Source: Synechococcales cyanobacterium C42_A2020_086
GTDB taxonomy: Bacteria > Cyanobacteriota > Cyanobacteriia > Elainellales > Elainellaceae
Direction of reading: 5' to 3'
Assembly (NCBI GenBank): GCA_015272325.1
Contig: JACYLU010000028.1
Location: 259,294 to 299,293 of the forward strand
DNA: 40,000 nt
Shown here: piece after piece, positions 12,911-38,202 of the stretch
How the letters are laid out: each line of letters opens with the position of its first letter
Position numbering within the stretch: the stretch's first letter is position 1
Program-made: the position numbers and the translations under genes
The notes under the pieces: generated by a model
What the model saw: only the letters and a program-made list of their open reading frames with translations
Database searches by the model: none
Told to the model about the DNA's origin: nothing

Positions 12911-12946
12911 TTGATGAATGAACGAATGAATTATCTGATGAATTAG

Positions 12947-17296: not shown

Positions 17297-17659
17297 AACG
17301 ATACAGTGAACACAAGTAAATCAGAGCTTTTAGAGCTTAGCCTAGTTCCAAAGTTGTCTAGTCAGTTGGGTCCACTTCAGCATTACGGTGTGTTGTATTT
17401 CAGGAGCTAAATTCCACTTTTTTTTCGGGCAAATGGATGTTGTTTGTCTAGCTGGATAAAGTTAATAATTCTTTTCAGTACATGAGAAACTACATCTACC
17501 CCATAGAGGCAAGCATCTCTCGGGAAAGGATGTGTTCACATGCAGAGAATAGTCCTGCTGGGCGATCGCCTCTTCTAATGACTATTCCTATTTGCGAGCT
17601 ATGGTGTGCATGGGTAAAGGATAGAAAAAGGTCGTGATGTCAATTTTATTTAACTAAAT

Positions 17660-19885
17660 TTAACTAATGAAATCTAATGCCCTGATGCCACTGAGAATAG
17701 TACGAACAACCCCACTTTTTCCTCGGCAGGGAAGTAAGATGACTTGCCCAGTTAAGGCTCCACTTTTGTCTAGGTCAGACACAATTTGACTTAAGTCATG
17801 CCCCATATATCCAGTAATGACGGCAACCAAGTCACAATTGCTGATCTTACTTTGAATACTGTTACGACTAATATGGCTTTCACTAGAAGGAGCTATCTCA
17901 GTAATATCTTTCATATTGTATGTTTCAGTTAGCTCACGAACCACTTCCCGCCGCGTAGCTGTATGTCCGCCGACCAATGCCAAACGCAGAGCCGATAGGT
18001 CGAGGGGAGAATCTGGGATCTCATCCCCTGGAGAAGTTTGAATACCGAGTTTTGCCGCTTCAGAGAGGCTCTGCTGCTGGTACTCAACAAGTTGGGACAC
18101 AACTTCTGAGCTGAGGTAGTATAGGGCACGTTTCAAATCCTGGAAAAAAGCTTCCTCTGAACGACCTTGCCGTATAGCATTATCAATTTCATTGATCGCA
18201 AGTCCTTGATACTCATTGCTGAGATTCTGACGCAATCTTGGCAGAGTATCGATATAGGGTTCTAGCCCCTCAAGCAATTCAAAATGTTGTTTACGACTAA
18301 TTTGTTGGGTTCCTGTAAGTATCCGTAATTCAGTCAACTCAACTTCTAATTTATCCATTTGCCCCTGGCTGGCTAACCAATCTAACCAGTCACCGTAGGC
18401 AATGAGCAATTTATCTGTTTGGTTGAGGTGTTTCCAAAGGTCTAGACGCACCTTCAAAATATCTTCGGCATTTAACAGACTAACCAACTGCGAACCTGCT
18501 GTTTCAATACACTGTTCATAGTAGATAACCTCTTGTTCAGAAGAGATATCACCGAATCCTCTTAGTGAAGCAAGCGTGGCGATATGGGCTCGATCTTCCA
18601 ATAGCAATGTTTCAGGGGCAACATCTATCAAGATTAGGTAGACCTCAGCCGCGTTTTCTGGGTTGCCTTCTGTAGCCCAAAGCCTTGCTAAAGGTAGGAG
18701 CATTTCGACTTGTCTCTCTCCAGACTGCCAAGCTTTCTCAAGAAACGGGCGAGCTTGGGATTTTTGTCCCATCCAATAGAGAGCAGCACCCCGTAAACCA
18801 GATAGGCAAGGAGGAAGTTCAGTAACTGAATCTGATAGCAGATTAATTACTTCCTTGAAGCGGTTATTGGATAGAAGGAGTTCTATTTGCCGAACCTGAA
18901 TCTCTTCTTGCTCCTCGGTAGTTTTAGCAGGAATTGATTGGTAAAGGTCTAGGGCTTTATTCGCATCCCCAACTGCCCGATAGGATGCTGCCAAGTTAAG
19001 CAGAACAGGAACAGACTGAGGATGCTTGGCTTGCAACACCTCCAATTTTGGAATACGCTCTACTGGCGCAATTTCGACTAACTGAGCTAATTGCTCACCA
19101 AGAGTGCCATCTGTTACTGGCTCAATCGTTTCCTGGGGATTCATTGCCTGATGGAGAAGTCTCCGTACTCCATCTGCTTGGCGAATTCGTTCTAGTTCTG
19201 GTAAGAATTCTTGAGCAATTTGCTGGGCAGATTGTAGCAGTTCCGGTAAGTTCTCCTGTTGAGAGCGTTGAATATGAGCATGCACAAGTTGCTCAACCAA
19301 CCTACCGGAGACAGGCAAAGCTAGAATTTCATCGCGTTTGATAGAAAAAAGGTCTACCAATTGCTCCGTTTTGTCTGTACGAGCATATAGAGTAATCAAC
19401 GAGCGAAGAGTATTGCCATCACCCTCAGCTAATTGCTGAAGCAGTTGCTCTTCAGCTTCTGTGACCTGCCCAATCCTGATTTGCTGTTCAATGCGGTTTG
19501 GATTAATTCCCTGAACCGTACTGGTTGGTGAAGGAATATCCTCGCTTAGTTGCTTGATGATGCTACGAAATTGAGCTTGCCACGATTTGAACGTTTGAAT
19601 TGCCTTTGCTTCTTGCTTAGAATAATCAGCAACTACTTTGGCGTTATTGACAGCATAAGAAGTTTCAATTGATGCCCACCCCTGTTGTAATTCCTCCTCG
19701 GTGGCTGTGACATAGGTGAAGTGAGTGTACTCCCCATGGAGAGATGGCATTAATTTTGTAACTTTGAAGCGTTCTCGGAGTGCCCGATGCAGTTCCTCTG
19801 CTTGTAACTGGCTGACGCACTTGAGGCGTAACCCCACTTGCTCAGAACCTCCAAGCTTAGAAACAATTTCGTATTGAAATTTCAT
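17660..19885 (-). CDS. TPR-repeat protein with a C-terminal DUF2325-like domain (last gene of the effector operon)
   Basis: 741 aa. The central region has TPR-like helices (LLNLAASYRAVGDANKALDLYQSI, LPLARLWATEGNPENAAEVY). The C-terminal ~110 aa, LALVGGHTATRREV...CDLVAVITGYMGHDLSQIVSDL...ILLPCRGKSGVVRTI, resemble DUF2325. The start overlaps the PLD stop as ATGA. Confidence 0.5.
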   Translation of the reverse strand: MKFQYEIVSKLGGSEQVGLRLKCVSQLQAEELHRALRERFKVTKLMPSLHGEYTHFTYVTATEEELQQGWASIETSYAVNNAKVVADYSKQEAKAIQTFKSWQAQFRSIIKQLSEDIPSPTSTVQGINPNRIEQQIRIGQVTEAEEQLLQQLAEGDGNTLRSLITLYARTDKTEQLVDLFSIKRDEILALPVSGRLVEQLVHAHIQRSQQENLPELLQSAQQIAQEFLPELERIRQADGVRRLLHQAMNPQETIEPVTDGTLGEQLAQLVEIAPVERIPKLEVLQAKHPQSVPVLLNLAASYRAVGDANKALDLYQSIPAKTTEEQEEIQVRQIELLLSNNRFKEVINLLSDSVTELPPCLSGLRGAALYWMGQKSQARPFLEKAWQSGERQVEMLLPLARLWATEGNPENAAEVYLILIDVAPETLLLEDRAHIATLASLRGFGDISSEQEVIYYEQCIETAGSQLVSLLNAEDILKVRLDLWKHLNQTDKLLIAYGDWLDWLASQGQMDKLEVELTELRILTGTQQISRKQHFELLEGLEPYIDTLPRLRQNLSNEYQGLAINEIDNAIRQGRSEEAFFQDLKRALYYLSSEVVSQLVEYQQQSLSEAAKLGIQTSPGDEIPDSPLDLSALRLALVGGHTATRREVVRELTETYNMKDITEIAPSSESHISRNSIQSKISNCDLVAVITGYMGHDLSQIVSDLDKSGALTGQVILLPCRGKSGVVRTILSGIRALDFIS

Positions 19886-20394
19886 AACAGTTGAACCGCC
19901 TGGTCAAAATGCTGGATGCAGTGCTGGCGAAGCTGAGCGATGCTCCGCTCATCATGGCAGTAGTTGTACAACTCAATGTTTTGGTTTACACCACCATCGG
20001 TTAGGTTCAGGGAACCGTCAAGGGCACCGTAGTGGCCAACGTAGGCTTTCGTATGTAGAGCGGATAGGACACGAACCTGGATTCGATCGCTGCGTTTTGC
20101 AAGCTGTCTCAGCGCAGAATGATAATCGGAGTCATCTCCAACAGTAATAAAAATGCTCCCACCATTTGCTGAAATTTGGTGAAGAATATCAAACAAATGA
20201 AGGGAATCTTGTTTGGTTTCAACGACCTCCTGAAAAGAAACATAGTAGGGATTTGCGAGTCGAAAGTTAGTGACCCAGGGAGCAACAATCCAAAACTCAA
20301 AGTGATCGCCTAGCTGTGAGGCAAGCACTTCATTCAGCAGAAAGTTGTAAATCATCGCCTGACCACTGCGTTGTAGGGTTGATCGCTTCGCCAT
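19882..20394 (-). CDS. PLD-superfamily (HKD-type) nuclease-like protein
   Basis: A single PLD-like motif, LHTKAYVGHYGALDGSLNLTDGG (H-x-K ... GS-x-N). The size and N-terminal WIVAPW strand are typical of NucT/DrmC-type nucleases. The ATG at 20394 follows GAGG by 8 nt. The upstream ATG at 20433 would overlap the helicase gene by 29 nt. Confidence 0.65.
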   Translation of the reverse strand: MAKRSTLQRSGQAMIYNFLLNEVLASQLGDHFEFWIVAPWVTNFRLANPYYVSFQEVVETKQDSLHLFDILHQISANGGSIFITVGDDSDYHSALRQLAKRSDRIQVRVLSALHTKAYVGHYGALDGSLNLTDGGVNQNIELYNYCHDERSIAQLRQHCIQHFDQAVQLL

Positions 20395-20404
20395 AGAATA
20401 GACC

Positions 20405-23400
20405 TCACTCAATAGGACGGATCGTAATTTCAATTGCAGGAGATTGGCTGACTGTCAGGTCAGTCGGATAGACGGTCTGAATGTCAGTAATCATGGGATA
20501 GATCATCCCTAAGTCTGTATCAATGCCAGCATCTGTTAGATAACTGATTGTGGTACAAAGCGAAGAGAGCCGATCGCTGGGTACTCGTAAGTAAATCGCT
20601 TGATATCCTTTCTCTAGAAGATGTCTGATTTGTTCACCTATGGATGTTATGGCTGTGTCATCATTTTCACCCTCTAGCGTCAGTGTCTGGCTAGCATGGG
20701 CCTGGGTTAACCATTCAGTAAGAAGTGGACGATTCAGCAAATTTCGGCTTAGTCCAGGCGCTTCAATGTCTCCACTGCGCTCATCCAGGCAGTTTGGGCA
20801 GCTACATCGACAAGTCATTAACATGCGGCGCTCTATTGCTGATTCAAATGCGCGGCGGACTTCATTTTCTGCTGTACCATACTCAATTCTGTAGAGTTGG
20901 AGGAGGCGAGCCAGTTCTGGGTAAGGAAGTGCTTGGTCTGAGAGGTTTAGAGAACTTGCTACAGTGCGGTAGAGAATTGATTTTGCCTCTGTGAATGAGG
21001 GGTCGCGACCAAACTGCTGAGTGCAGGAGGGCAGAAAGTCTTGGTTAATTTCTCTAAAGATGCGCCAGTTTATTAGACGGTTGCCATCAACTTGTTGAGT
21101 GTAGTCAGGAATAAAGACTCTCAGCAAAGCCTTAAGCTGCTTTTGTTGCACAATAACTTGTAACTGCTTGCGAACTGCTACGAGCAAACCCTCAATGGCT
21201 ATCTGGCGATCGCTAGAACTGCGAGCTTGGATCACAGCATTCACAAGTGCCTCGCAGTGGGCTAACCAATCTTGGGGTTGAGCCAGTAAATATCGAAGGA
21301 ATGCTTCCTCCTGAGCAGTTGGACAACGGGTCATGCGATGCGCCAATGTTGTCCAAAAGCGATCTGGGTTCTTCCGCAAAAGATCTTGGGTTGCACGCAT
21401 GACGCCAATACCACCCATACCAATTTCATACAGCCAGATAGGTTTAATGACTTCATTGCCAAAGTCGATTCGTAATCTAGTCCATGCTGAAACATAGTTC
21501 AATGCTTCAACTCCAGCTATTTCTTGAGCTACCTGCTTTAATGCTACGGTCAAACTATATTGAAAGGTGTCTTGTAGATAGTCTTGGTACAGGGCACCCT
21601 CCGATCTGAACTCCTCGTAAAGATCTAAAAAAATTGATAAGTAGTCATTTGGGCTAGCAACCAATTGCATGACCGCCTCAGTTTTCTTCGGTGATAATTG
21701 ATGAATTTGGTTAACTGATTGAGTGAACTGACGGTTGAATTCGTTGTTACCTGCTACCAGCCAATTTCGTAAACCATCTGGTGTCCCTGCCTGCTCATGG
21801 CACCAGTTATCAGCAAGAGACAAAAGAACATTCACTAAATTTTCAGCGGCAAAATAGCTTTCTCCAGACTCAACAGTCAGGTTAGTGATAAAGGCATGCC
21901 GAACTGCATTATTGCGAAGGGTAGCTTTTGTGGAAGGCGAGAATATAGAGGTTGATAGGGCATCAGGATTGAGGTTGATGCTGATTCCCTCAGTGATAAG
22001 TTGATAGCCTAAGGCACAATTAGTGTTGGCATCTTCATCAGCAGTAAAACCAACAACCTGTCTAATATCCTCTGCTTTAGCTTCATGAAACTTAAGTGTG
22101 TATTGGCTGCCAAGTATGATACGACGAACATCCAGGAGATTCAAATTGTCAGGCTCATCACTGTAGAGCACAATATCCTGGACTAAATTCTGCCCGAGAC
22201 TGTCACAAGCGACTGGTTGATCGGTTGGTTTGAAGGTGTATTTAGACGTAGCAACATCACGGATTGGTCGGATATAAACTGCACTAATAGACTGGGCTGA
22301 GCACGAGTGAGCCAGTTGATACATATCCTGTGGTGCATCCTCAGTTCTACGACACTCTCGAAGTTCACCTGTATCAGGCTTGCAATACCAGAATGACGAA
22401 TTGTAGTCACGACTGAATTGCTGAGGTTCAATTTGAGTAGGGCGATAGAGGGTTAGAAATTTATCACTACGAGGAGTGATGCCAACTAACTTAAGCGCAC
22501 GTTTTGGTAGATTAACCGTGCTAGGGCTGTTCTCAATCCGATCTTTTGATGTGTAGTATCGACTGAGAGGAATCAGCGATTGCCCATCTGGAGTGACAGG
22601 GGGTATCCATGTTGAGCCTTCCCCACCGCGAAAGGTTACATTTCCCGGTATGGTTTCACTGATTGCTAGACTGATGCTTTCCGGATCAAGGCGCTTATCA
22701 AAGCGACGATCGTCAGGGCGATAATCTACACGCACCTCTGGTAAATTGATGTCTGAGAACAAGTTTTCTGGCAAGTGCTGCGTGAGCATCGGACGGGCTT
22801 TAACCGTTTGCTCGTTCTCACGATCAAACTTTGGATGCACAGCCTTCATGAGTCCCTCGAAAAAGATGCTCCAGAGAAACCCATCTGAATCCACATCTCC
22901 CAATACACGTATTAATGTATTGCTATCTGCGATCGCGAACGATTCCTTCAAGTAGTCCTTGAACTTGAGCATCATATTCATATTGACTGTCTGGTTCAGC
23001 AAATACTGATAGCCCTGACGCGATAGCTTTTCTAAATCGAGTTCTATCCCTACAAGGTGTGCTTGATATGTCAACCAGTCAAACAGCGCATAGAAGCCGT
23101 GAATTCTTTGGAGGTAGCGGTTTTGGGCATTAAGAGGAAGTTTTTGGAAGGTCGGGTCTGTCAAGAGATGCTCATTCCGAAACAAAAATAAGTCGGTCGG
23201 CTTATAAGGACTGAGCACAGTAACGACAATCGGTCGGGTGCCCACTTTACGCCCTCCTCTTCCCTTACGTTGAACAAAGCTGGCGATATTTGCGGGGGCA
23301 GTATATTGAATGACGCACATCAGTGCCTCATCATCGTATCCAACCTCTAAAGCACTGGTGGTAATGACAAGGTCATCATCATCTTCAATAACAACAGAGC

Positions 23401-25375
23401 GATCGCTCCCTGATTTACGCTTAATATTCAATGGTTCTTGACGAGCTTTTCCTTTCTGGCTCAGTACCCACCAGCATTCCCCCGCCTGAAAAAGTGGGCA
23501 GTTTGGGTTCGGAGTTTGGGTTCGTTCACAGTTACAGTTGTACTGCGTCGTAGGTCCAAAGAAATTAGGAAAGAGTTGACGATTAAGGGGAGGATAACGA
23601 TAGGCATACAGAGGAACATATCTAATTGGATAGGTATCGTCCGTAGGACGAACTCCCTGTCCCTTCAACTCTTGACGCCTTTCAGCTTGGTAGTCTTTGA
23701 CCTTTTCAGCATCTTGCATCTGATACAGCCAGCGACCAACGATATCTAATGACTGCACAAATCCAAAGGTACGGTAGCGCTTCAAATCACCATCTGTTGC
23801 TGGTTGCGGCATCGTATGCAGCACACACATTGCTGTTTGGATTAAGGATGAAAGAACAGCAGTATCCTCAGTATCTTCAGCGCGAGCGAAGATAAAGCGC
23901 TCTGCCCCAATAATCTGCATCTCATGATCTTGGGGCTTTACCTCTTCAATCCGAACTGGGTCAATGCCGGAAAGTTCCGACAGAAATTGTTTAGGATGGG
24001 CGATCGTGGCACTAAGACCAACAAAGGCAAGGTTGGCTGGTTCCTCGCGATCGCGCTTGCCCATCCGAATTCTTGCCAGTAATCGCCGCAGTAATAGGGC
24101 GACTTGGGTACCAGACGTGGAAGTCTGCAAGTGAATTTCATCCAGCATTACTACAGAGGGAGCACAGAAGGTTGCATTCCCAAACAGGTATTGGTATTCC
24201 GAAGAGATTAACCGTCGATGGAGGGATTCTGTTGTTGCGATGAGAAGGTCAGGTGGTTCCTTCTTCATCACATCACGGGCAAATTTGATAAAGGGGTAGG
24301 CTTTACTGCACTCCGGACACACCAATAGTTCAGGCTGTGTTGGGCGCGAAAGCAACCGTTGAGGCTTCGTATCACAGCTATGCCCCTCTGTGCCGACACA
24401 ATAAGCGAAAGGAGACAAATAGCCCTGATGCTCTTCGCTGAACGTCCAACCTCGTTGCTTAGCTAGTTTTTTCTGCTGAGATTCATCGATCTTTTGAAAG
24501 TCTTTAATTTGGTAAACGGCTGCACCACTTTCCACGCCAATTGTAATGGCGGGGAGGTTATTGGCAACCAGCACCTGGTTCAGGTGATATAGAACCTCAA
24601 TAAAATCGGTGAGTTGATTTTCTGAAAGTGCGACCCGTGGGTAAATACAAATTGCTTTAACTCCGACACGTTGCCGAAGACAGCGCTCCAGCACCATCTT
24701 AGCTAACACCGGAAGGAAGAATGCATAGGTTTTTCCGGCACCTGTGCTGGCTGTGACTACCACTCCTCGTTCGATACTCTGCTGCGGCTCTAGTTCGATC
24801 GCCTGCAAAATGGCCCTCAAAGTACGGCGTTGGAAGCCGCTCATCTGTTGGAGTTTGGTCAGGGTCTGCTCAATCACCGTTAGCAGGAGGTCGGCAGTTT
24901 GTTGCTGTTCTGAATTACCAGCAAGCAATGGCCCCATGCAGGTTCGGACAGGAATGTTACGGCGTGGAACCCGGCGAGAGGCAACGCTAAACTTCACATC
25001 CTCAATCAACCGCTTACTTTTGCTAATCCGATGAGCAGCTTTACCAGGATTGTGGTTGACAATACGTTGGCGAAGTTTAGTCAAAAGTCGGACTGTTTCT
25101 GCAACTCGGCTACGAAAAACCCAGTTTTCTGGCAATTCTTCCTGATCAAACCGAATGATTTGCAAATTAATAGCAAGTTGTTCTAGAGCCTGGGTAATTG
25201 CTGAGGTTCTTGCTTCTGGTGGTAACTGAATATCATCTGAGGGTTGAAAGCTCCGAATGACTTCACTTCCTGTCAAGGTTAAGTCGTAAATGCCATAAGC
25301 AATTTGCTCAGCCTCACGCTGCTCAATAAAGGTCAAGACTTCATCGGCTAGATGCTTGATAGTTTCAGAATTCAC
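20405..25375 (-). CDS. giant superfamily-2 DEAH-type helicase with a C-terminal DUF1998 (MrfA-type) Cys cluster; DrmA/DpdE-like
   Basis: 1656 aa with a GTG start. Walker A is ASTGAGKT (24728-24751), motif II is DEIH (24131-24142) and motif VI is QRKGRGGR. The CRCSCPNC cluster sits at 20789-20812. Two further Cys4 inserts lie inside the helicase core. Confidence 0.8.
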   Translation of the reverse strand: MNSETIKHLADEVLTFIEQREAEQIAYGIYDLTLTGSEVIRSFQPSDDIQLPPEARTSAITQALEQLAINLQIIRFDQEELPENWVFRSRVAETVRLLTKLRQRIVNHNPGKAAHRISKSKRLIEDVKFSVASRRVPRRNIPVRTCMGPLLAGNSEQQQTADLLLTVIEQTLTKLQQMSGFQRRTLRAILQAIELEPQQSIERGVVVTASTGAGKTYAFFLPVLAKMVLERCLRQRVGVKAICIYPRVALSENQLTDFIEVLYHLNQVLVANNLPAITIGVESGAAVYQIKDFQKIDESQQKKLAKQRGWTFSEEHQGYLSPFAYCVGTEGHSCDTKPQRLLSRPTQPELLVCPECSKAYPFIKFARDVMKKEPPDLLIATTESLHRRLISSEYQYLFGNATFCAPSVVMLDEIHLQTSTSGTQVALLLRRLLARIRMGKRDREEPANLAFVGLSATIAHPKQFLSELSGIDPVRIEEVKPQDHEMQIIGAERFIFARAEDTEDTAVLSSLIQTAMCVLHTMPQPATDGDLKRYRTFGFVQSLDIVGRWLYQMQDAEKVKDYQAERRQELKGQGVRPTDDTYPIRYVPLYAYRYPPLNRQLFPNFFGPTTQYNCNCERTQTPNPNCPLFQAGECWWVLSQKGKARQEPLNIKRKSGSDRSVVIEDDDDLVITTSALEVGYDDEALMCVIQYTAPANIASFVQRKGRGGRKVGTRPIVVTVLSPYKPTDLFLFRNEHLLTDPTFQKLPLNAQNRYLQRIHGFYALFDWLTYQAHLVGIELDLEKLSRQGYQYLLNQTVNMNMMLKFKDYLKESFAIADSNTLIRVLGDVDSDGFLWSIFFEGLMKAVHPKFDRENEQTVKARPMLTQHLPENLFSDINLPEVRVDYRPDDRRFDKRLDPESISLAISETIPGNVTFRGGEGSTWIPPVTPDGQSLIPLSRYYTSKDRIENSPSTVNLPKRALKLVGITPRSDKFLTLYRPTQIEPQQFSRDYNSSFWYCKPDTGELRECRRTEDAPQDMYQLAHSCSAQSISAVYIRPIRDVATSKYTFKPTDQPVACDSLGQNLVQDIVLYSDEPDNLNLLDVRRIILGSQYTLKFHEAKAEDIRQVVGFTADEDANTNCALGYQLITEGISINLNPDALSTSIFSPSTKATLRNNAVRHAFITNLTVESGESYFAAENLVNVLLSLADNWCHEQAGTPDGLRNWLVAGNNEFNRQFTQSVNQIHQLSPKKTEAVMQLVASPNDYLSIFLDLYEEFRSEGALYQDYLQDTFQYSLTVALKQVAQEIAGVEALNYVSAWTRLRIDFGNEVIKPIWLYEIGMGGIGVMRATQDLLRKNPDRFWTTLAHRMTRCPTAQEEAFLRYLLAQPQDWLAHCEALVNAVIQARSSSDRQIAIEGLLVAVRKQLQVIVQQKQLKALLRVFIPDYTQQVDGNRLINWRIFREINQDFLPSCTQQFGRDPSFTEAKSILYRTVASSLNLSDQALPYPELARLLQLYRIEYGTAENEVRRAFESAIERRMLMTCRCSCPNCLDERSGDIEAPGLSRNLLNRPLLTEWLTQAHASQTLTLEGENDDTAITSIGEQIRHLLEKGYQAIYLRVPSDRLSSLCTTISYLTDAGIDTDLGMIYPMITDIQTVYPTDLTVSQSPAIEITIRPIE

Positions 25376-25408
25376 AGGTAGAGCCTTTTGAGAAAGAGCA
25401 TTATGAGT

Positions 25409-27205: not shown

Positions 27206-27214
27206 GGTTAGTCC

Positions 27215-30499: not shown

Positions 30500-31188
30500 A
30501 GAAAATAAACCCTTGGGGTTAACTCATATCTCGTCCAAGTACCTGAGTTTCGGATGGGTGCTTGCGATGGGGTTGCTGAATCAGAACGATGAAGCGTCAG
30601 CAGGAAATGGTTAATCAGGCAGAGACTGCGACAGGTTTCGACATCATCAAACACAATGGCAAACCGTTTGAGTTCTTCTACCAAGTTTTCGGCTGCCACA
30701 TTCAAAGGAGCAAGCGCCCGGGCGCATTGGGTCGAATCTTCTTCCGTGCTGGTGAACCGAGTCTGGAATGAGCGCACAAACTGCCGGATCAGTAATTCCA
30801 AAGCCTTGAGCGCTTTCTCTTTATCTTCGGGGCGGGAAAAATTGACCGATCGCTTGCTGAGCAACTGAGCAACGAGTTGTTCGATTGCCTTGTGCTTACT
30901 GGTTTGGTGTTTATTGCTCCAAAAGGTGAGCGCATCGCTCAGAGTTGGAATAGTCGGTAGGCGTAGGGTGAAGTAAAACTCAATAATGTTGCGAAGATAG
31001 CTACGCCAGATCTCCATCTGAACGTAGGGAGAAATGTAACGAGGGCGATCACCAAACTGAGTTTCAAAGTACTGCTGATAGGCTTGGGTTCCAAGCAGCA
31101 TCGGACGCACCACCGATGAATCAAGGAAATGGGCGCGATGATCGAAGACCGCCCTTTGGGCATTGCCCCCTGGCTCACTCATGACCAT
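30496..31188 (-). CDS. hypothetical protein, possible PIN-like N-terminal half
   Basis: 230 aa. HFLDSSVVRPML ... ISPYVQMEIWRSY loosely resembles the first Asp and Glu strands of PIN-like domains. It overlaps the upstream ORF by 14 nt and the DGQHR gene 3' end by 4 nt. Confidence 0.3.
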   Translation of the reverse strand: MVMSEPGGNAQRAVFDHRAHFLDSSVVRPMLLGTQAYQQYFETQFGDRPRYISPYVQMEIWRSYLRNIIEFYFTLRLPTIPTLSDALTFWSNKHQTSKHKAIEQLVAQLLSKRSVNFSRPEDKEKALKALELLIRQFVRSFQTRFTSTEEDSTQCARALAPLNVAAENLVEELKRFAIVFDDVETCRSLCLINHFLLTLHRSDSATPSQAPIRNSGTWTRYELTPRVYFL

Positions 31189-31678
31189 CTGGTTCCATAT
31201 CCGTGCTTACTGCCACTTCATAGGGCATTGTGTTAAACCCTAGCCGCCCTAATTCCTGAATGGCTTGGCTGACATCCTCCTGACTCAGGGGCGATCGTTT
31301 GAACAGAGCCTCAAAAAGTGTGTAGGCTCCCTGGTATTGTTCAGGGCTGTAGTCAATCCAACGGTTCTGGAATGTCATCGCATCATGGAGCACCATCAAA
31401 ACCTCTGTGAGTGGTTCATCAGGGGCTTGGTCAAAGAGATGCTGCATGGTTCGGAGCAGACTATCCGCATAAACAGCCGAAGGAGACCCGTCATGGAGCC
31501 ATTGCATGTGACGGAGATCGGGCAGAAGTTGCTCGGCAACTTGCCCCCACTGGATTCGCTGGGCTTCAGCTTCAGGCTTCAGCTTTTGCTGTAAAGCTTT
31601 GATGTAGGCCAGCACTTCCTCCTGGTTCTTAGAAGGCAGTTCACGCAGGTTGTCTAGAACGGCTTGTTCGATGTTCAT
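31175..31678 (-). CDS. hypothetical protein with a DUF2281-like N-terminus
   Basis: 167 aa. MNIEQAVLDNLRELPSKNQEEVLAYIKALQQK resembles the DUF2281-type N-terminal helix pair of some antitoxins. The rest is unassigned. Confidence 0.3.
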   Translation of the reverse strand: MNIEQAVLDNLRELPSKNQEEVLAYIKALQQKLKPEAEAQRIQWGQVAEQLLPDLRHMQWLHDGSPSAVYADSLLRTMQHLFDQAPDEPLTEVLMVLHDAMTFQNRWIDYSPEQYQGAYTLFEALFKRSPLSQEDVSQAIQELGRLGFNTMPYEVAVSTDMEPDGHE

Positions 31679-31720
31679 GGCGATAGCTCAGTGGTGCGAT
31701 CCTGCTCTCTGATCTTAATC

Positions 31721-32602
31721 TCAGCCTGCCACAGTTTGGGGAATGGGTGGTTCTACAACTTCCTGTAAGGCGTTTCGATGTCCAAACCGTTGGTAGTCGT
31801 AGCGAGCATCCCACCAGAGCCAGTTGGTTGAATCTGCCCAGACGTTATGCTTTTTAAGTACTTCAAGGCGAGTGAGAGCCAGTCCTCCCAGTACGAAGTC
31901 GGGACGGCTCCAAGTGAGGAGATCGTCGAGTTGCTCATTAGAAAGCCCAAATTTTAAGCCGGTTGGCATCGTGGGATCTGACTTGAGCAGACCACCAAGG
32001 GCAATGTATTGGTAGCCGATGTTGCGATATTCACTGATGAGCGATGATAAAAAGCTTCGAGGGGAGTTGTAGTGAGGAGGCAGTGCGTCTTTCTGAGGAA
32101 TGGGTTGACGATTTTGCCAGTTATAGAGAGCATCACCCACCTGCACCACTCCAATCAGCTTGAATTCTCTAGGTCTCTGAGAGTATTCCTGCCATGCCAG
32201 ACGTGCTAAATGTAAAGATAGTAAAGGTTCACCGACTATATCTGGTGCAAAGAGAAAACTGGGTGTAAATTCATCACAACGGTTAATAATTCCTCGGATT
32301 TTTTGAATTAGCTTATCCTTATTGGCTAATACTGGTTCCCTAAACCAACGATCATTCTCAAACTTGCAGTCAGGCTGTTTATACCAAGAACACTTGAACT
32401 GGTAATAGGAAGGTGCAACATACTCTTCAAATACACCGCTATCAAGGAAATAAGTTTTCCCCAAATCTTGAAGAATCTTTAAGAAATTGTCAGATTCGAG
32501 AGCAGTTGCCAGGATGCCATATTCACCGTTTAAGTTGTCTTGCAACTTTTTTAGTAAATTAAGGCGGTTGACAGCAAATACAGGTAGGAACGTGTTCTCC
32601 AT
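31721..32602 (-). CDS. short TGT-superfamily protein (second DpdA-like paralogue, no zinc motif)
   Basis: 293 aa. FLDSGVF parallels TGT DSGGF. YQYIALGGLLKSD parallels GYAIGGLSVGE. VWADSTNWLWW parallels the second catalytic Asp strand. No CxCxxC motif is present. Confidence 0.65.
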   Translation of the reverse strand: MENTFLPVFAVNRLNLLKKLQDNLNGEYGILATALESDNFLKILQDLGKTYFLDSGVFEEYVAPSYYQFKCSWYKQPDCKFENDRWFREPVLANKDKLIQKIRGIINRCDEFTPSFLFAPDIVGEPLLSLHLARLAWQEYSQRPREFKLIGVVQVGDALYNWQNRQPIPQKDALPPHYNSPRSFLSSLISEYRNIGYQYIALGGLLKSDPTMPTGLKFGLSNEQLDDLLTWSRPDFVLGGLALTRLEVLKKHNVWADSTNWLWWDARYDYQRFGHRNALQEVVEPPIPQTVAG

Positions 32603-32731
32603 GCCACCAGCACAGTTAAAAGGTTAAGCTTATAAAAATTTAACTCTTCTAAGAAACCGTTCCTTGATTTTGTAATCAAAATCACACGATTTCAAACCTC
32701 ATGATAATTGGGGATCCAAAAGCAAAGACAA
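32603..32731. promoter_or_regulatory. divergent control region with a perfect 8-bp inverted repeat
   Basis: TGATTTTG-TAAT-CAAAATCA lies at 32665-32684. An AT-rich TATAAA element lies nearby. The region sits between the short dpdA-like operon (-) and the PD-(D/E)xK gene (+). Confidence 0.35.
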
Positions 32732-33859
32732 ATGTCAGAATCCGTTGATAAATTACAAGAAGCAGAAGTCGTGTTCTGGCTTAAACAAGCCCTTAGAGAT
32801 AAAGATCTGAAAGGACGTCTGGTTAAAGACATTTTGGTTGATGCTGATCCAAGCTATTTACGCTCAAAGTTCCGACGGCATCTTGAGCCTACAGGAACAA
32901 TTTGGATTAGCGATAGACGACCGGATCTTGTTTGCAATCTGGTAGATAATAGCACAGAATTACTAGTCGCATTTGAAGTTAAAGCTCATTCCGATCATGA
33001 GAAAGGAATTGTGCAAGCAAGTCGTTATCGATATGGAGTGCATGAGTCATACCTTTGTATCCCCACGAATAGTGGTAAAACCCCAAAGTGGTTGCGGGAT
33101 GCTGCCGCAAAAAATGGAGTTGGATTAATTCGTGTTTCCAATAATGATTATGAGCTTGAAATAGAGCCTGAATATCCTCTTCCTGACCCTAAGATCCTGC
33201 TGATTACACAGCGTTATCTATTAGGAGAAAAAAGTGCTCGTTCTCTTTGTATGAATAGGCCATTGCACTATGCAGCAGCTTTAATCGCATTCACATATGA
33301 GGAAAGCCCTAAAGAAGCATTAATTAATCAATGGGGTATCAAAGGTTCATCAATTAAGCATTCAATCAGTGGTGCAGAAACACTTGGATTACTCATGGCT
33401 GATGGACAGGCAACTATCAAAGGCAGAGCTTATGCTGAAATATTGAAGCTCCTCGGCTTTGATTTTTCTCATTCAAGGTATCTCACGAAATCAAGGCGGC
33501 GTTTAGCCAAAGACGCACCAGGCTTTGCAGCAGTTTTGCGCTCTATCCTTTTGGATCATCCTGTTGTCGATCTTATTATTCATGTCTTAGCGGATGCTGG
33601 TGGTACTCCAATTTCAGCAGATAAATTAGCAGAGAAGGCTTCTCTTATAGATGAAGGCATGGCACGTGCAGCATTTGGTATGCCTCCAATTCTAGGAGAA
33701 ACATGGCAAATAAAAAGTTTTACACGCTTTAATCTTAAAGCGGCAATGTATGATGTTGGACTGCTCGATTCACCTCTTTCAGAACAAACAAATTATGATC
33801 CTAAAAATGATCTTTGGCAGCTAAGAACTATATGTGGCATACCAGATCTTTCGAGTTAA
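32732..33859 (+). CDS. PD-(D/E)xK nuclease-fold protein with a long uncharacterised C-terminal region
   Basis: RRPDLVCNLV...ELLVAFEVKAHSD...QASRY fits the D...(D/E)xK...Q restriction-endonuclease-like core. The ATG at 32732 is preferred to the TTG at 32708. The 3' end overlaps the convergent dpdA-like gene by 32 nt. Confidence 0.5.
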   Translation: MSESVDKLQEAEVVFWLKQALRDKDLKGRLVKDILVDADPSYLRSKFRRHLEPTGTIWISDRRPDLVCNLVDNSTELLVAFEVKAHSDHEKGIVQASRYRYGVHESYLCIPTNSGKTPKWLRDAAAKNGVGLIRVSNNDYELEIEPEYPLPDPKILLITQRYLLGEKSARSLCMNRPLHYAAALIAFTYEESPKEALINQWGIKGSSIKHSISGAETLGLLMADGQATIKGRAYAEILKLLGFDFSHSRYLTKSRRRLAKDAPGFAAVLRSILLDHPVVDLIIHVLADAGGTPISADKLAEKASLIDEGMARAAFGMPPILGETWQIKSFTRFNLKAAMYDVGLLDSPLSEQTNYDPKNDLWQLRTICGIPDLSS

Positions 33860-35921
33860 GTTGAGGTGCTGAAGTACAGCTTATTTGATATAAAAGCTCT
33901 TTGAATCGGTTGTAAAATGTGTAGGTATTGTGAAAACCACGCCTGCGATTTCGATCATTATTTCTAAATAGAACAACTTCAATCCCTATCTCTTTGCAAA
34001 CTGAGCAGCCACATGAATTCCACGGTTTTTCTTGTAGCAGTTCTCGGTAAGGATTTTCAAACTTTGCCTGGTATTTTGATAATGCTTCAGGGCTAGATTG
34101 CTCTTCCTGAGATTCTACTAGCATGCTGTAAGCTGCAACTGACTCTAAAACTGCTTCCAAAGCTAGTTTACCTAAATCAAATTGCCTTAGAGCATTCAAA
34201 GCCTCTTGTTCGTACCTCTTAAAAGTTTCCAAATCAACAGAGCTATTTTCAAGAGCACGCTTCACTTTCAACCCTCGCTCAGTTGGTGGCACTCTAATAG
34301 CCTTAAAAAATCTTCCTGAAGAAGTATGGTAGTTCTTTGTGTCAGATAACCATGCTTGCCTCAGTGGACTCGCCGAGTCAAAACTTGTGACTCCCAAATG
34401 CCGAAATACTGGAATTGCCTCAATTCGAGCAACCCCAAACAAATGCAACCGCACATGTGGTTTGAGATGAGGATAAATTGCCTTCAGGATTGGCACAATC
34501 TCCTTCGTTTGTGCACGAGCTAATCCACCTAGTGCCACATAGTCATATCCCATGCCAATTACTTCTTTCACGGCATTAGCATAGGACTCTGGGTTCCACC
34601 CTTGAGCCACACCCATTGGAGTAAACGTGTATCCTAATTCTCGATGCTTCTGGATAAAGTCTTCAGCATTTTTCAGTGTAATTTCATACCGTTTTTCCCG
34701 TTCGCCTGGTTGAGCAAAGGGACCTACAATCAGGTGGTCAATACTCACCCCATAGTTAAATCCCAAATTTTCGTAATACTCTAAAATTTCGTCAGTATTG
34801 TATGGAGGCACTTCTTCCTTGATGTAACCAAATGCTCCACAATCTCCCATGATTCGCCCTGGGAACCGGATGAACTCGTGGATTCCACCTGCTGCTTCCA
34901 CCCGTGCTCGTTTTGTTTTGCTCTCATCAACTACGACTTTAGAAACTAAAATTCCGTCGTAATTCGGCGAGGGATAAATCTCGTGTGCATAGATGTCATT
35001 GTAGGGATCTCGACCTGGCGTGAGAGTATCGGTGAGGAAGTCATAGTTTGGATCTACGCGATCGTCCCACTCTGGAATGTAATATTGCATTCCCAAGTGA
35101 ACATTAGGTGCTGGCGGGCAGGGAGGGATGGCTAAATAGTCCTCTGCTGGGGGCTTAATGACTTGTTTAGACGCCTTTTTAGCCGCAGAGACAGACACCC
35201 CCATTGACAACTCTAACTGGGTCTCCTGCTGGTCGATCAATTCTTGAAAGACGGTCGGCTCCTCATAAACCGCTTTTAATAATTCAGCGTCCTTACAGAC
35301 TGCCTCCGCAAATCGTTTGAACAGAAACCCCTTTAACCCAACCAATCCATAGCGATAACGTTTTGCATCAGCATTTGATAACGGCAATATAAACGTCTTC
35401 GCTGCTAAAGTCCTGATAAATCGAGTACTACTGTTAGATGCCAAAAATACTAACGTCTGATCAGGTCTGGTTTCGACAGGCAGTGTCAGCGATCGCAGAT
35501 AGTTCTCTCCCAGCAATAAGAAAATAAGGTCATAAGGGGCGATCGCTTTCTCAAATGCATCGTGCAATCCGAGCGATCGTGCCCAACCATCCACCTCATG
35601 CCCCTTCATGCCGTTGAAGGTGACCTCGTAGGGGACAATCAACCTGTCCTCTTCAATCAACCCATACCCCGCCGATAGGATACTGAGATCCACAGCATTT
35701 TGTCCCAATGCACCACGCCATTGCAGCACCCCTTCCATCAGTTGGAGATGCTGCATCCCGGTATACATCGCTCCAGCAGTGGTAGAGAAATCAGCTAATT
35801 CAGCTTCCCGTTTCTGTAGGCGATCGGCATTCTTAAAGTCTGCCAAGACCAGTTGATTCTCGGGTTTAGACTGCTTCTCCCCAGTGCAGGACGTAATAAC
35901 TAAGACACGGGGATAAGGCAT
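33828..35921 (-). CDS. dpdA: DpdA-like DNA/tRNA-guanine transglycosylase-family protein fused to an N-terminal ~250-aa domain
   Basis: 697 aa. The C-terminal ~400 aa carry the TGT motifs [22 protein letters not shown] and [15 protein letters not shown]. The TGT zinc motif CGCSVC (33996-34013) is followed by a His 22 residues later. The N-terminal [12 protein letters not shown]...ILSAGYGLI...VPYEVTF recalls DUF6884-type domains. Confidence 0.8.
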
Positions 35922-36622
35922 TCGGCTTCCTGCTCATACAACTCACGACCTACTAACGTTGCCAGATCAGGTCTACCCGCGTCAATTAAAGCCTGATCTC
36001 GAATCCGGCATGAGTCACACACTCCACAAGGTTCTGCTTGTCCTTGATAGCAAGACCACGTCAGTGCAACAGGCACTCCTAACCGCAAAGCCCGACACAC
36101 AATGTCCACCTTAGAATCCATCACCAAGGGCGCGACAAGCTTGGGAGCTTTACCTTCCAGTCCGGTTTTGGAGGAAAGGATGGCGAGGTGCTGAACAGCT
36201 TCCAAATACTCCGGTCGGCAGTCAGGATAGCCGGAGTAGTCCACTGCGTTGATTCCCAAATAAATTGCCTCGGCTCCTTTGGCTTCCGCTAGCGAGAGGG
36301 CGATCGCCAGAAACACCGTATTCCGCCCTGGTACATAAGTGACAGGTATGACTCCAGGTTGCACACCAGCGGTAGGCACTTCTACGGTTTGGTCAGTGAG
36401 GGCAGAACCGCCCCACTGCGCTAGGTTCACATCGACCACAAAGTGTTCCTTGATCCCCAAATGCTCAGCTACTCGTTTAGCGGCAACCAGTTCACGATCG
36501 TGCCGTTGACCGTAGTGGAGCGACAGGGCAATTAGTTCGTAGCCATCGGCGATCGCCTGAGCCGCAGAGGTTGCCGAATCCAGACCACCAGACAATAAAA
36601 CAACTGCTTTGGGGGTATTCAT
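35900..36622 (-). CDS. queC: 7-cyano-7-deazaguanine (preQ0) synthase
   Basis: [22 protein letters not shown] and the C-terminal [10 protein letters not shown] zinc motif. The stop lies 22 nt inside the dpdA-like gene. Confidence 0.93.
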
Positions 36623-36633
36623 CAGTTCACTCC

Positions 36634-37320
36634 TTATCGAATGTTGGTGAATTTATGGGTTTGTAAGCTGATTCGCCACTCCGGGTGACTGAGAACATAC
36701 TCAAAGATGAGCGAGTAGCTATCAGGTGTACCCCATTCCGGTTGTAGAAGTTTGACCACATCGGTTGGAATTTGGGCAGCCTGATCCTCTGCCCATAACA
36801 GATCAGACGGGCTAGCAACCACAACCTTCAGTTCACTTACCTGTGGATCAATACTTTTGTGAGGCGGCTTGGATCGCTTAGGGGAGAAAGTAACCCAGTC
36901 GAAACTGCCACTGAAGGGATGTGCGCCAGAGGTCTCTAGATGGACTCGCAACCCTGCGGCTCTTAACCCATTGCTGAGGGAGGAGAGGTCATGCATCAGG
37001 GGTTCGCCACCTGTAATGACCACGATCGCCGAATTTGCCGCTTTCGCTTCTGCAATCAGGTCGGCAGTGAGGCGTTGGGGATGGCGGTGAGCATTCCAGG
37101 AATGTTTGGTGTCGCACCAGGGACAACCCACGTCACATCCTGCCAGTCGAATAAAAAAGGCATTTGTACCTGTCCAGGCTCCCTCGCCCTGAACCGAGTG
37201 GAAGGTTTCCACCACTGGCAGGACTGCCGAGGTTGCTTTAGAGGTTACGGTAGTGGGGCTCAGGCTTGTCATAAGATTCACAGTGTGTGCGAAGCACATA
37301 TCGCTCCTAGTCGTCCTCAT
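36634..37320 (-). CDS. queE: 7-carboxy-7-deazaguanine synthase (radical SAM)
   Basis: [15 protein letters not shown] and the radical-SAM cluster [10 protein letters not shown]. The start is uncertain. The ATG at 37320 overlaps the queD stop by 14 nt, and an alternative ATG lies at 37272. Confidence 0.9.
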
Positions 37321-37696
37321 ACTCAGCCCAAGAATTGGGAGTTTCAGACACAGCGACCTTCAGCTTCACATCAGAGGGCAATTGCTTTTTCGTCTTGTTA
37401 TAGATATATTGAGCAATCATCTCGGCAGTGGTTTCGTAACCTTCGGGCAGAACTTCGTTTAGAACCGAATGGTCAAGCCCGCCTTTAAGCAGATCTTGCT
37501 TCGCCCAACGGAGCGTGCGGAAGTCAGCCACCATGACGGGGTGAGGACAGTACTCTGAGACATGAAGCTGGCTAGAGGTTGCCTCAATCCGCACTCGGTA
37601 GGTATGTCCATGCATCCGCCCACAGGGACCGTCATAGTCTCGGATGAAGTGGGCAGCATCAAAGGTGAACTCCGTAGAAAGTTTCCATTTGGGCAT
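37307..37696 (-). CDS. queD: 6-carboxy-5,6,7,8-tetrahydropterin synthase
   Basis: FTFDAAHFIRDYDGPCGRMHGHTYRV is the canonical QueD/PTPS Cys and His-x-His zinc site. The protein is 129 aa. Confidence 0.9.
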   Translation of the reverse strand: MPKWKLSTEFTFDAAHFIRDYDGPCGRMHGHTYRVRIEATSSQLHVSEYCPHPVMVADFRTLRWAKQDLLKGGLDHSVLNEVLPEGYETTAEMIAQYIYNKTKKQLPSDVKLKVAVSETPNSWAEYEDD

Positions 37697-38060
37697 TTGG
37701 ATCTACACCAAGTCATTTATAAACCGCTATCGATCGCCAGGGAGTTTTAGACTAAATCTGCTTATAGCGTTATTAAGACTTAAACTTATAGCATCACACA
37801 CCATTCCTGGAATCAGTATTAACAAAGATTCTCTGTGTAGCCGTTGAGCTTCCCCAGTAAAAGCTTTAGGGGATATCTGGGAGGTCAGACCGTTAGTGGC
37901 TAATCCAGTCCCCATAGTCGCGATCCAGATGCTCACACTTTTGGGATCTCTGTTCTTCTTGCTCGGTCGCGATTGAATCTTGTGCAGGTGTCTGTTTAAA
38001 AGCCCCTCCTTTTGGCAGAAAGAAAATTCCTATTCTTAGAGCGCAAATTAATCAAAAGTT

Positions 38061-38080
38061 TCCTCAAATTTCCTCAAATT
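38061..38080. repeat. 10-bp tandem duplication TCCTCAAATT x2 in the AT-rich spacer
   Basis: Read directly from the sequence. Further TTCCT-rich iterations follow at 38091-38110. Confidence 0.7.
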
Positions 38081-38202
38081 AAGTTTTAGTTTTCCTCCTT
38101 TTTCCTATATTTTGAATTTCATAAAATTCACCATAAAAAGCTAGATCGAAATCCTAAATAAAATCTTAAATCAAATTCACCCCGAACTTACAAGCCAATA
38201 TT

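Follow-up and report, generated by a model that had tools for sequence, protein, structure and literature searches.

A putative Dpd-type restriction-modification island in a hot-spring cyanobacterium and its link to a widespread NurA-HerA module

The 40,000-nucleotide stretch of contig JACYLU010000028.1 analysed here (hereafter, the window) comes from the hot-spring Synechococcales cyanobacterium C42_A2020_086 and contains an island of approximately 20 kb, described as mobile, in which genes for making a 7-deazaguanine base and inserting it into DNA lie next to an operon of helicases and nucleases. We are fairly confident that the island is a horizontally acquired restriction-modification (R-M) system of the Dpd type, with the 7-deazaguanine base as self-mark. 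The reference for such systems, Dpd (dpdA-K) of Salmonella enterica serovar Montevideo, is said to be a 7-deazaguanine R-M system reported by Thiaville in 2016 and Yuan in 2018. The cyanobacterial island includes in addition a NurA-like nuclease and a HerA ATPase, and this pair is not a chance neighbour, being a widespread module paired with TGT/DUF6884 genes or, in some archaea, with a C5 cytosine DNA methyltransferase. The two gene themes of the island are linked, since the modification genes and NurA/HerA are syntenic in other cyanobacteria; their co-occurrence, proposed in a first-pass annotation of the window, was borne out when the corresponding neighbourhood survey was run. All the open reading frames (ORFs) listed in that annotation were recovered in place by the ORF map. 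The genes assigned to the modification side are the following:

37307..37696, reverse strand: QueD-type 6-carboxytetrahydropterin synthase.
36634..37320, reverse strand: QueE-like radical-SAM 7-carboxy-7-deazaguanine synthase.
35900..36622, reverse strand: QueC, 7-cyano-7-deazaguanine (preQ0) synthase.
33828..35921, reverse strand: 697-aa fusion of a DpdC-like DUF6884 domain (approximately residues 5-156) with DpdA (residues 277-677).
31721..32602, reverse strand: 293-aa divergent TGT-superfamily TIM-barrel protein.
29405..30499, forward strand: 364-aa DndB/DGQHR-family (ParB-superfamily) protein.

Neighbouring genes in the run from queD to dpdA overlap or lie 11 nt apart, and Pfam and NCBIfam matches agree with the earlier reading of the first three as queD-queE-queC. 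QueC matches Pfam QueC (2.7e-71) and TIGR00364 (220.9 bits, cut-off 150.3), QueD matches Pfam PTPS (2.5e-31) and, below cut-off, the QueD model TIGR03367 (75.7 bits against 89), and the QueE-like protein matches Radical_SAM (3.3e-8), with its best NCBIfam matches all being QueE models (125 bits, under the equivalog cut-offs). The 697-aa protein, matched by NCBIfam, PADLOC, Pfam and PDB entries, reaches 478.4 bits on the NCBIfam DpdA model NF041059 (cut-off 200) and 1.2e-128 on the PADLOC DpdA model. Its DpdA part aligns with the solved Salmonella DpdA (PDB 7UI4; E = 8e-95), the general acid D95, D130, the nucleophile D256 and the CxCxxC...H zinc site being kept and H181 being replaced by Q (residue roles as assigned in PMC10164549). 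The DUF6884 part scores 34.3 bits on Pfam PF21818 (cut-off 30) and 1.5e-10 on PADLOC DpdC, covering residues 7-103 against a 319-position model, and carries CxxxK (residue 12) and LSAxxG (residue 82), described by Pfam curators as motifs of the DUF6884 family (PMC11701544). Judging from these matches, the fusion would be the writer of the 7-deazaguanine mark, and the protein set leading from preQ0 to DNA appears to be complete, with its catalytic residues intact.

DpdA needs an ATPase partner (Gedara 2023, PMC10164549). The probable functional counterpart of this partner, DpdB, is the 364-aa protein, whose earlier assignment to the DGQHR/DndB family is confirmed by Pfam DndB (PF14072, 5.9e-75, 253 bits), by NCBIfam DGQHR (TIGR03187, 102 bits, cut-off 58.85) and by a DGQHR motif at residue 109; its gene is syntenic with DpdA in six related loci, and specifically with DUF6884-DpdA in the cyanobacterial loci L003, L087-L089 and L094. 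Two TGT-superfamily proteins had been proposed, and the second, the 293-aa protein, can be placed there at the profile level: library scans (Pfam, PADLOC, NCBIfam) and a PDB search returned no match for it, a DpdA profile of our own, built from related loci, scored it at 63 bits, and iterating a profile from the protein itself led to the TGT ORFs found by the DpdA profile (50/50 overlap). In the alignment both catalytic Asp motifs (DSG, ADS) are kept and the C-terminal zinc subdomain is missing. Orthologues of 279-306 aa directly adjoin DUF6884-DpdA in L003, L087-L089 and L094, and the nearest non-orthologous relatives are the class-B TGTs encoded downstream of HerA (see below), making of this paralogue a candidate second writer subunit or reader of the mark.

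Transcribed away from dndB is a tight operon of six genes, with intergenic gaps or overlaps of at most 33 nt:

29028..29285, reverse strand: 85-aa protein, first gene of the putative restriction operon.
27215..29035, reverse strand: 606-aa nuclease of predicted NurA fold with an inserted winged-helix-like domain.
25409..27205, reverse strand: 598-aa HerA-type hexameric DNA translocase ATPase.
20405..25375, reverse strand: 1656-aa DpdJ-like superfamily-2 DEAD/DEAH helicase.
19882..20433, reverse strand: 183-aa DpdK-like single-HKD phospholipase-D (PLD)-family nuclease.
17660..19885, reverse strand: 741-aa protein built as a TPR solenoid, with a small alpha/beta domain at the N-terminus and a Rossmann-type, DUF2325-like domain at the C-terminus.

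Sequence searches of Pfam, PADLOC, NCBIfam and PDB with the 606-aa protein, including a 15-sequence profile against PDB, were all empty, and the earlier NurA-like call is upheld by its predicted structure. An AlphaFold2 model computed on 50 homologues (predicted local distance difference test, pLDDT, 86.3; predicted template modelling score, pTM, 0.88) had only NurA structures among its top 10 Foldseek matches in PDB (9x1m_G, 3tal, 2ygk; E 4e-10 to 1e-6, probability 1.0), which points to a NurA fold; lower-ranked partial matches to regulators of the winged helix-turn-helix (wHTH) type suggest an inserted wHTH-like domain in the model. Residues D80, E171, D193, D383, D441, H493 and H564 are invariant in the 50 homologues. 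The next gene, after a gap of 9 nt, is herA, the product of which matches Pfam DUF87 (2.7e-15), PADLOC HerA PDLC01055 (1.1e-93) and, under cut-off, the NCBIfam HerA families, with a Walker A motif (GFTGAGKS) at residue 191; the HerA-like and PLD-like calls of the first-pass annotation are both backed by Pfam and PADLOC. The PDLC01055 model carries the label 'Type III coevolved', which suggests that relatives of this HerA clade were earlier noted as accessory genes of type III CRISPR-Cas; a weaker match was to MADS mad8 (2.3e-11).

HerA-NurA is an established DNA end-resection complex (PMC5715905, PMC9960219, PMC12977600). The likeness to this complex (PDB 9x1m, 3tal, 2ygk) lies in a NurA-fold nuclease being encoded beside a HerA (DUF87) ATPase, so that the expected mechanics would be those of a hexameric translocase feeding DNA to a nuclease. 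The island family nevertheless differs from known NurA proteins in length (approximately 615 aa versus 320-450 aa), in its inserted winged-helix-like domain and in its low identity (approximately 10%), and it is missed by NurA hidden Markov models (HMMs). It also differs in its gene context, being linked to TGT/DUF6884 or to a Dcm-type methylase, with no mre11-rad50 in the operon except in one Thermodesulfovibrio lineage; family scans found no Metallophos or SMC genes in the island.

The 606-aa protein is the signature gene of a widespread NurA-like/HerA module. A scan for its family, with one genome per species, gave 78 species-level loci, annotated with profiles built iteratively from the window proteins, and 62 of these had enough flanking DNA for judging modification genes. 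The 78 loci span more than 15 bacterial phyla and many archaea, the latter including Methanosarcina, Methanoperedens, Bathyarchaeia, Nitrosopumilus, Woesearchaeota and one Asgard archaeon. The family has more than 400 close database clusters and forms 367 clusters at 50% identity among 1.84 billion representatives, being therefore rare but broad in distribution; a profile scan of viral contigs and a plasmid search with the NurA-like query both returned zero relatives. HerA adjoins the NurA-like gene in 73/78 loci, TGT and/or DUF6884 genes are present in 44 of the 62 assessable ones, and TGT lies at most 300 bp from the NurA-HerA pair in 36/43 loci. The genes are typically arranged as DUF6884-NurA-HerA-TGT, as NurA-HerA-[DUF6884-TGT fusion] or as [DUF6884-TGT fusion]-NurA-HerA. 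The TGT beside the pair belongs to true DpdA in 15 loci (344-489 bits on NF041059), to a divergent class B in 19 loci, mostly archaeal and often fused to DUF6884, to an arcTGT-like class in seven and to a small fourth class in three.

Unbiased all-against-all clustering of the neighbouring ORFs revealed that a C5 cytosine DNA methyltransferase (PF00145, 1.6e-69) accompanies NurA-HerA in nine loci, all archaeal and all without TGT, at a distance of 0-36 bp from the pair. Such occupation of the place of TGT by a methylase is the pattern expected of a restriction module with interchangeable self-marks, and adjoining DNA-marking enzymes that replace one another, as NurA-HerA does, is what characterises a restriction arm. 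Other recurrent neighbours are a UvrD helicase (10 loci) and a DEAD-HhH-SWIM helicase (five loci), and defence genes found in the neighbourhoods comprise DarT-Macro, HEPN/MNT, BrxC/D-like, GmrSD, NACHT and SIR2. Defence genes are densely packed around the module, and its accessory set is larger, in an Anaerolineae metagenome-assembled genome (MAG; L006/L057, 133-12005), where Vut_1 (a YhhQ-type preQ0 transporter), DUF6884, three unknowns, a BrxC/D-like AAA protein, TGT, NurA and HerA are directly followed by a Macro-DarT pair and a nucleotidyltransferase/HEPN pair.

A reading that would place NurA-HerA on the modification side must be weighed at this point. HerA would open the DNA as DpdB does, NurA would nick or process it for base exchange, and restriction would be left to DpdJ/DpdK or UvrD/PDDEXK. 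The requirement of DpdA for an ATPase partner (PMC10164549) speaks for it, as does the scarcity of DndB, detected with our own profile in only 1/78 loci and in none of the minimal NurA-HerA-TGT-DUF6884 cassettes; moreover, another NTPase has been proposed to replace DpdB in BREX-related capture (BRC) systems, which have HerA and TGT (PMC12839542). However, the window and its cyanobacterial relatives hold both DndB and HerA, the minimal cassettes would be left without any restriction component, the methyltransferases that replace TGT need no translocase, and the candidate catalytic residues of NurA are all invariant. We consider this arrangement most improbable.

The favoured reading of the island as a Dpd-type R-M system draws further on the way in which cyanobacteria assemble these genes. 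Their shared modification module consists of DUF6884-DpdA (approximately 700 aa), the short TGT-like protein (279-306 aa) and DndB on the opposite strand, and it is followed by the small first gene and then by variable helicase-nuclease modules, distributed as follows:

L088: NurA-HerA only, after the small first gene.
Crocosphaera L009: NurA-HerA (the contig stops within HerA).
L089, L087 and Stigonema L003: UvrD-PDDEXK_1 and NurA-HerA.
Conjugative plasmid of Scytonema sp. NIES-4073 (L094): UvrD-PDDEXK_1 and DpdJ-like-PLD-TPR.
Richelia sinica (L091): DpdJ-like-PLD-TPR(-MazG).
Window island: NurA-HerA and DpdJ-like-PLD-TPR.

Cyanobacteria join, in other words, one modification module to any of three helicase-nuclease modules: NurA-HerA, UvrD-PDDEXK and DpdJ-PLD-TPR. 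The UvrD-PDDEXK_1 pair, which resembles modules of the AddAB/AdnAB type (UvrD plus PD-(D/E)xK), fills in the sister loci the slot that DpdJ/PLD/TPR or NurA-HerA take up here, and is not found in the window. The Scytonema plasmid was located through a search with the TPR protein. The DpdJ-like/PLD/TPR trio is a conserved unit in Cyanobacteria and Chloroflexi, present in L091-L094, and in Roseiflexaceae and Chloroflexi loci it occurs without TGT within 10 kb. On the chromosome of Richelia sinica FACHB-800 (L091), a second PLD protein and a 762-aa match to PF28109 (DpdD) are encoded at 1049-4343, upstream of DndB/DpdJ-like/PLD/TPR, with IS66, NACHT and NCH2 genes between them and DndB; this locus may be disrupted or split, since there is no TGT within 10 kb.

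As regards the trio itself, the 1656-aa helicase has DEAD and Helicase_C domains, a Walker A motif (GAGKT, residue 212) and, towards the C-terminus, a CxCxCxxC cluster (1522-1529). It matches PADLOC DpdJ at 7.1e-162, with the DrmA model reaching only 1e-21 and DpdF matches being weak (approximately 1e-5) and far under that of DpdJ. NCBI-named DpdJ proteins share 27-28% identity with it over approximately 55% of the query, and by sequence it appears to belong to a distinct Cyanobacteria/Chloroflexi clade of DpdJ-like proteins. The PLD protein (JGI gene call of 170 aa) matches PADLOC DpdK (5.1e-24) and Pfam PLDc_2 (2.3e-5) and carries H127-x-K129 ... D-G-S-L-N; the order of DpdJ-like followed by DpdK-like is that of Salmonella. 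The first-pass call of a TPR/DUF2325-like protein stands with TPR repeats (Pfam TPR_19 2.7e-6) and a weak DUF2325 match (6e-4). The AlphaFold2 model of this 741-aa protein (pLDDT 84.6) has PDB matches to TPR only, and no enzymatic fold was recognised in it with Pfam or by comparing the model with PDB; its family is confined to Cyanobacteria and Chloroflexi, with many members encoded on contigs of the same lengths as those that bear DpdJ-like proteins, and the protein is a probable scaffold or adaptor.

The first-pass annotation had described the helicase-PLD pair as DrmA-like, of the DISARM type, and this had to be abandoned in favour of DpdJ and DpdK. The likeness to DISARM (helicase DrmA, DUF1998 protein DrmB, PLD protein DrmC and methylase DrmMI/II) consists of a large superfamily-2 helicase, a PLD-family nuclease and a DNA self-mark; DISARM was rejected on the DrmA score (1e-21 versus 7e-162 for DpdJ), the weak secondary match to DrmC and the lack of DrmB/DUF1998 and of a methyltransferase. 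The DUF1998 that had been attributed to the helicase gave no match even at E <= 5. The statement that methyltransferase, dndACDE and integrase genes are lacking proved accurate for the island ORFs of at least 80 aa (Pfam/PADLOC/NCBIfam scans). A DpdJ-like helicase and a DpdK-like PLD protein make the island a variant of Dpd, so that some of what had been presented as an undescribed combination is canonical Dpd. The R-M-like interpretation itself is partly supported, as a Dpd-type system; as to the other part of the combination, a full-text literature search of incomplete coverage found no description of NurA/HerA in connection with DpdA, TGT, preQ0 or deazaguanine.

The features shared with the Salmonella system are a DpdA that agrees in catalytic residues and zinc site, a putative DndB-type ParB partner, a DpdC-like domain, adjacent preQ0 synthesis genes, a large DpdJ-like superfamily-2 helicase followed by a DpdK-like PLD protein, and an island size of approximately 20 kb. 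The differences are the lack of DpdD-I, the fusion of DpdC to DpdA, the extra short TGT paralogue, the added NurA-HerA and TPR/DUF2325 proteins, a DndB outside the Dpd-family models, and DpdJ and DpdK proteins below cut-off in a clade of their own. On these sequence comparisons, the island seems best filed as a Dpd variant rather than as a canonical member.

Several observations weigh against the reading of the island as one Dpd-type system. None of DpdD, DpdE, DpdF, DpdG, DpdH and DpdI was the best or a significant assignment among the island proteins (PADLOC, NCBIfam), and in the same two libraries the 364-aa DndB protein had zero matches to any Dpd-family model. The helicase scores 529.6 bits on NCBIfam DpdJ NF041067, under the equivalog cut-off of 800, and the PLD protein 78.6 bits on DpdK NF041068, under the cut-off of 100. 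In addition, the DpdJ/PLD/TPR trio and NurA-HerA are each found without the other, and because of this they may be independent effectors and not one machine. From the survey, nine of the 62 assessable loci have neither TGT nor methylase, and some of these, or of the Armatimonadota loci with short flanks, adjoin MutS. In a Thermodesulfovibrio MAG (L004/L010, 3326-11828), the order DUF6884-NurA-HerA-DpdA (427 bits) continues with Mre11-like (Metallophos) and Rad50-like (SMC_N) genes, the only case seen of the cassette joined to mre11-rad50 homologues. Finally, HerA-NurA is known for end resection, an activity that a sparse base mark would have to stop.

The independence of the modules could be taken further, the island being then a patchwork of a Dpd modification-only cassette, NurA-HerA, DpdJ/PLD/TPR and a toxin-antitoxin-like pair, none of them interdependent. 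This would agree with Richelia and the Scytonema plasmid being without NurA-HerA, with the L088 and L009 stretches being without DpdJ/PLD/TPR (L009 ending inside HerA), with the Roseiflexaceae and Chloroflexi trios that have no nearby TGT, and with the dpd islands without restriction genes reported in the GATOR-GC preprint. It is regarded as unlikely, considering that wherever the DndB side is visible in the cyanobacterial loci the module runs divergently from DndB behind the same small first gene, that NurA-HerA abuts TGT/DUF6884 across distant phyla and that the six window genes form one tight operon.

The Mre11-Rad50 and MutS neighbours, for their part, leave room for a repair role of the NurA-HerA module. 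The NurA-like/HerA/TGT/DUF6884 core would in that case act on damaged guanines, the TGT-type protein exchanging the base and DUF6884 binding the lesion, both coupled to HerA-NurA resection; the resection function known for HerA-NurA is compatible with this, and so is the recovery of the DUF6884 member YfjM as an interactor of DNA lesions (PMC11701544). Against repair stand the replacement of TGT by a C5 DNA methyltransferase in nine archaeal loci, which fits self-marking, the patchy spread of the family over many phyla, resembling horizontal transfer, and its carriage on a low-GC island flanked by insertion sequences (IS), with the DpdJ/PLD/TPR variant on a conjugative plasmid. The linkage to DpdJ/DpdK and preQ0 genes and the defence-rich neighbourhoods point the same way, Mre11/Rad50 was not recurrent among the neighbour clusters occurring in at least five loci, and we also count against repair the zero relatives in viral contigs. 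Repair as the function of the core is accordingly judged very unlikely. A subgroup of the module may have a different role: in L022, L028, L031 and L056 (Armatimonadota and unclassified-bacterium MAGs), NurA-like/HerA lies beside a full-length MutS, without nearby TGT or methylase, and has on the other side an HpcH/HpaI aldolase gene, which was also seen in L035, L036 and L038. Apparent 'TGT' fragments in Armatimonadota loci were discarded as an artefact of single-linkage BLAST; they were judged to be shadow ORFs opposite the HpcH aldolase and found no support from our own HMMs.

Returning to the Dpd-type R-M reading, the observations consist of the identities of the genes, the folds of their proteins, the conservation of catalytic residues, synteny and co-occurrence, and from them we infer actual DNA modification, the modules that restrict and the way in which the mark blocks restriction. 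QueD, QueE and QueC would make preQ0 from the product of the host GTP cyclohydrolase, and the DpdA domain of the fusion would swap guanine for preQ0 in the DNA of the cell itself. The DndB/DGQHR ParB-type protein would give ATPase help, as DpdB does in Salmonella, and the fused DpdC-like DUF6884 domain may turn the preQ0 deoxynucleoside (dPreQ0) into dADG (2'-deoxy-7-amido-7-deazaguanosine). The eukaryotic QTRT1/QTRT2 enzyme is a heterodimer, and by analogy the 293-aa TGT paralogue may pair with DpdA. The divergent operon, with its small regulator, NurA, HerA, DpdJ-like helicase, DpdK-like PLD protein and TPR scaffold, would supply two helicase/translocase-nuclease machines, HerA-NurA and DpdJ-DpdK, which would degrade DNA without the mark, with the TPR protein as scaffold and with the 85-aa product and the 119-bp divergent region regulating expression.

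A wider proposal is put forward tentatively, as somewhat less likely to be right than wrong. The NurA-like protein of approximately 615 aa and HerA would be the restriction arm of an R-M family extending over Bacteria and Archaea, in which the writer is interchangeable (TGT/DpdA lineages with DUF6884, or a Dcm-type methylase). The motor would be halted by the sparse mark much as Chi sites tame RecBCD, and the short TGT might read the mark.

HerA is associated with TGT also in BRC (2026), in which a HerA/FtsK translocase occurs with a TGT presumed to put a 7-deazaguanine mark into DNA; the components that define BRC are PglZ, DUF6079, a STAND NTPase, DUF4007 and GNAT, and homologues of DpdB/DpdC are missing from it (PMC12839542). 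The island has no BRC-defining component and has NurA, DndB and DUF6884 instead. How Dpd restricts unmarked DNA is an open question in the field, the roles of DpdD-K being stated as undefined (PMC10164549), and the island, together with its relatives, shows a 7-deazaguanine writer combined with helicase-nuclease pairs that are simple and well understood (NurA-HerA, UvrD-PD-(D/E)xK and DpdJ-PLD). The four-gene NurA-HerA-TGT-DUF6884 cassette, found in many phyla and in archaea, would offer a much easier system for studying how the mark is read, and the link of NurA-HerA to TGT or a Dcm-type methylase across Bacteria and Archaea is of wider interest. In a survey of 2,335 unique dpd islands, the single cyanobacterial island 'lacked all restriction genes' (GATOR-GC preprint), which would be the expected outcome if only DpdD-K were searched for; the modules described here offer an explanation for cyanobacterial dpdAB islands so reported. 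Two NCBI MAGs, 'Synechococcales cyanobacterium C42_A2020_086' and 'M58_A2018_015', have identical island proteins, of which PGAP names only DndB, queuine/archaeosine tRNA-ribosyltransferase and ATP-binding protein, all others being hypothetical. This suggests that the rules of defence finders miss such variants.

The remaining features of the island and its edges are:

29286..29404, no strand: 119-bp intergenic stretch that separates dndB from the divergent putative restriction operon, with a tandem repeat.
30496..31188, reverse strand: 230-aa protein without family or PDB match.
31175..31678, reverse strand: 167-aa protein with a weak N-terminal DUF2281/VapB-like match.
32708..33859, forward strand: 383-aa protein found in this island only.
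16058..17381, forward strand: IS3-family insertion sequence, left edge.
38198..39585, forward strand: IS701-like (DDE_5) insertion sequence, right edge.

The 85-aa protein had no significant match in family HMM scans, including to RHH, the family to which it had been assigned in the first-pass annotation. Its case is one of positional conservation, with homologues that in L003, L009, L087-L089 and L091 likewise separate DndB from the helicase/nuclease genes, and it is a putative small DNA-binding regulator. The intergenic region at 29286-29404 has a perfect tandem ATGTATGC-ATGTATGC with ATGCAT palindromes, and a scan of it found neither a consensus promoter nor a terminator. By its position it is a candidate shared control region, the repeat being a possible operator for the 85-aa product or DndB.

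The genes of 167 and 230 aa, with an overlap of 14 nt, make up a cassette of their own, both proteins having relatives of at least 90% identity in Leptodesmis sichuanensis (consecutive UIE38577/UIE38578) and other Leptolyngbya-like cyanobacteria; the pair is absent from the related island loci. Most homologues of the 230-aa protein have 292-295 aa, on account of which the window copy may be N-terminally shortened or mis-started. The weak VapB/DUF2281-like N-terminus of the 167-aa protein (Pfam DUF2281 0.0025, NCBIfam TA_VapB 7e-4) hints at a toxin-antitoxin-like pair, an assignment that was not substantiated, both family matches being under cut-off. The 383-aa ORF (375 aa in the JGI call) is convergent with the dpdA gene, overlapping it by 32 nt, and has no relative in any related locus. 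It had been called a PD-(D/E)xK protein, which Pfam, PADLOC, NCBIfam and PDB searches, all empty, do not support; a PD72...E90-V-K92 motif can be seen by eye. These three genes are not in the related loci and look like insertions, the 167/230-aa cassette probably being one outside the core.

At 0.457 over 17382-38197, the GC content lies below the 0.559 of positions 1-16057, in accordance with the drop noticed earlier, the two spot counts of which (35/60 and 24/60) are exact. To the left lies ordinary cyanobacterial chromosome, with genes for Psb27, TamB, a DUF3110 protein and two transporters (ABC exporter, MFS), and with a copper cluster of CopA, cupredoxin and DUF305 genes. The island had been called IS-bounded, and there is indeed an IS at both edges; the two differ in family, however, and the island's right flank is cut off by the end of the contig. 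In the IS3 element (Pfam rve 1.8e-22, HTH_21, rve_3), imperfect terminal inverted repeats of 27 nt lie at 16058-16084 and 17355-17381, and between them are a truncated OrfA (16128-16274) and OrfB (16442-17296), an rve transposase; the IS701-like element (Pfam DDE_5 5.9e-23, DDE_Tnp_1) has 28-nt inverted repeats at 38198-38225 and 39558-39585. With flanking IS of different families, IS3-type (rve) and IS701-like (DDE_5), the island is not a composite transposon. The window ends approximately 70 bp short of the end of its source contig, and the true right flank is therefore out of view.

The JGI metagenome contig Ga0484953_000083 is 100% identical to the window, in opposite orientation. In a second metagenome (L002, JGI 3300020567), the 95.7-kb contig Ga0213465_1820154 carries this operon too, from the small first gene through the TPR gene, with the same copy of IS3 after it, and is broken inside dndB; a third sample (L090, Ga0272446_1083595) holds an identical 1.2-kb fragment. 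Assemblies are repeatedly broken around the island. A metagenome scan with the helicase as query returned one identical 1.2-kb fragment and nothing else.

Just left of the IS3 copy, a 105-aa ORF (15669-15986, reverse strand) contains '...GDGALGFWKVLAQVFP...'. It presumably resembles a fragment of an IS256/mutator-type transposase and, if so, the left border of the island holds debris of more than one IS. The copper-handling cluster (11533-15541) comprises a DUF305 protein, a cupredoxin, a CopA P-type ATPase and a small HMA-like 65-aa ORF (15344-15541), and it lies, with an intermediate GC content of 0.49-0.55, between the high-GC housekeeping genes and the island.

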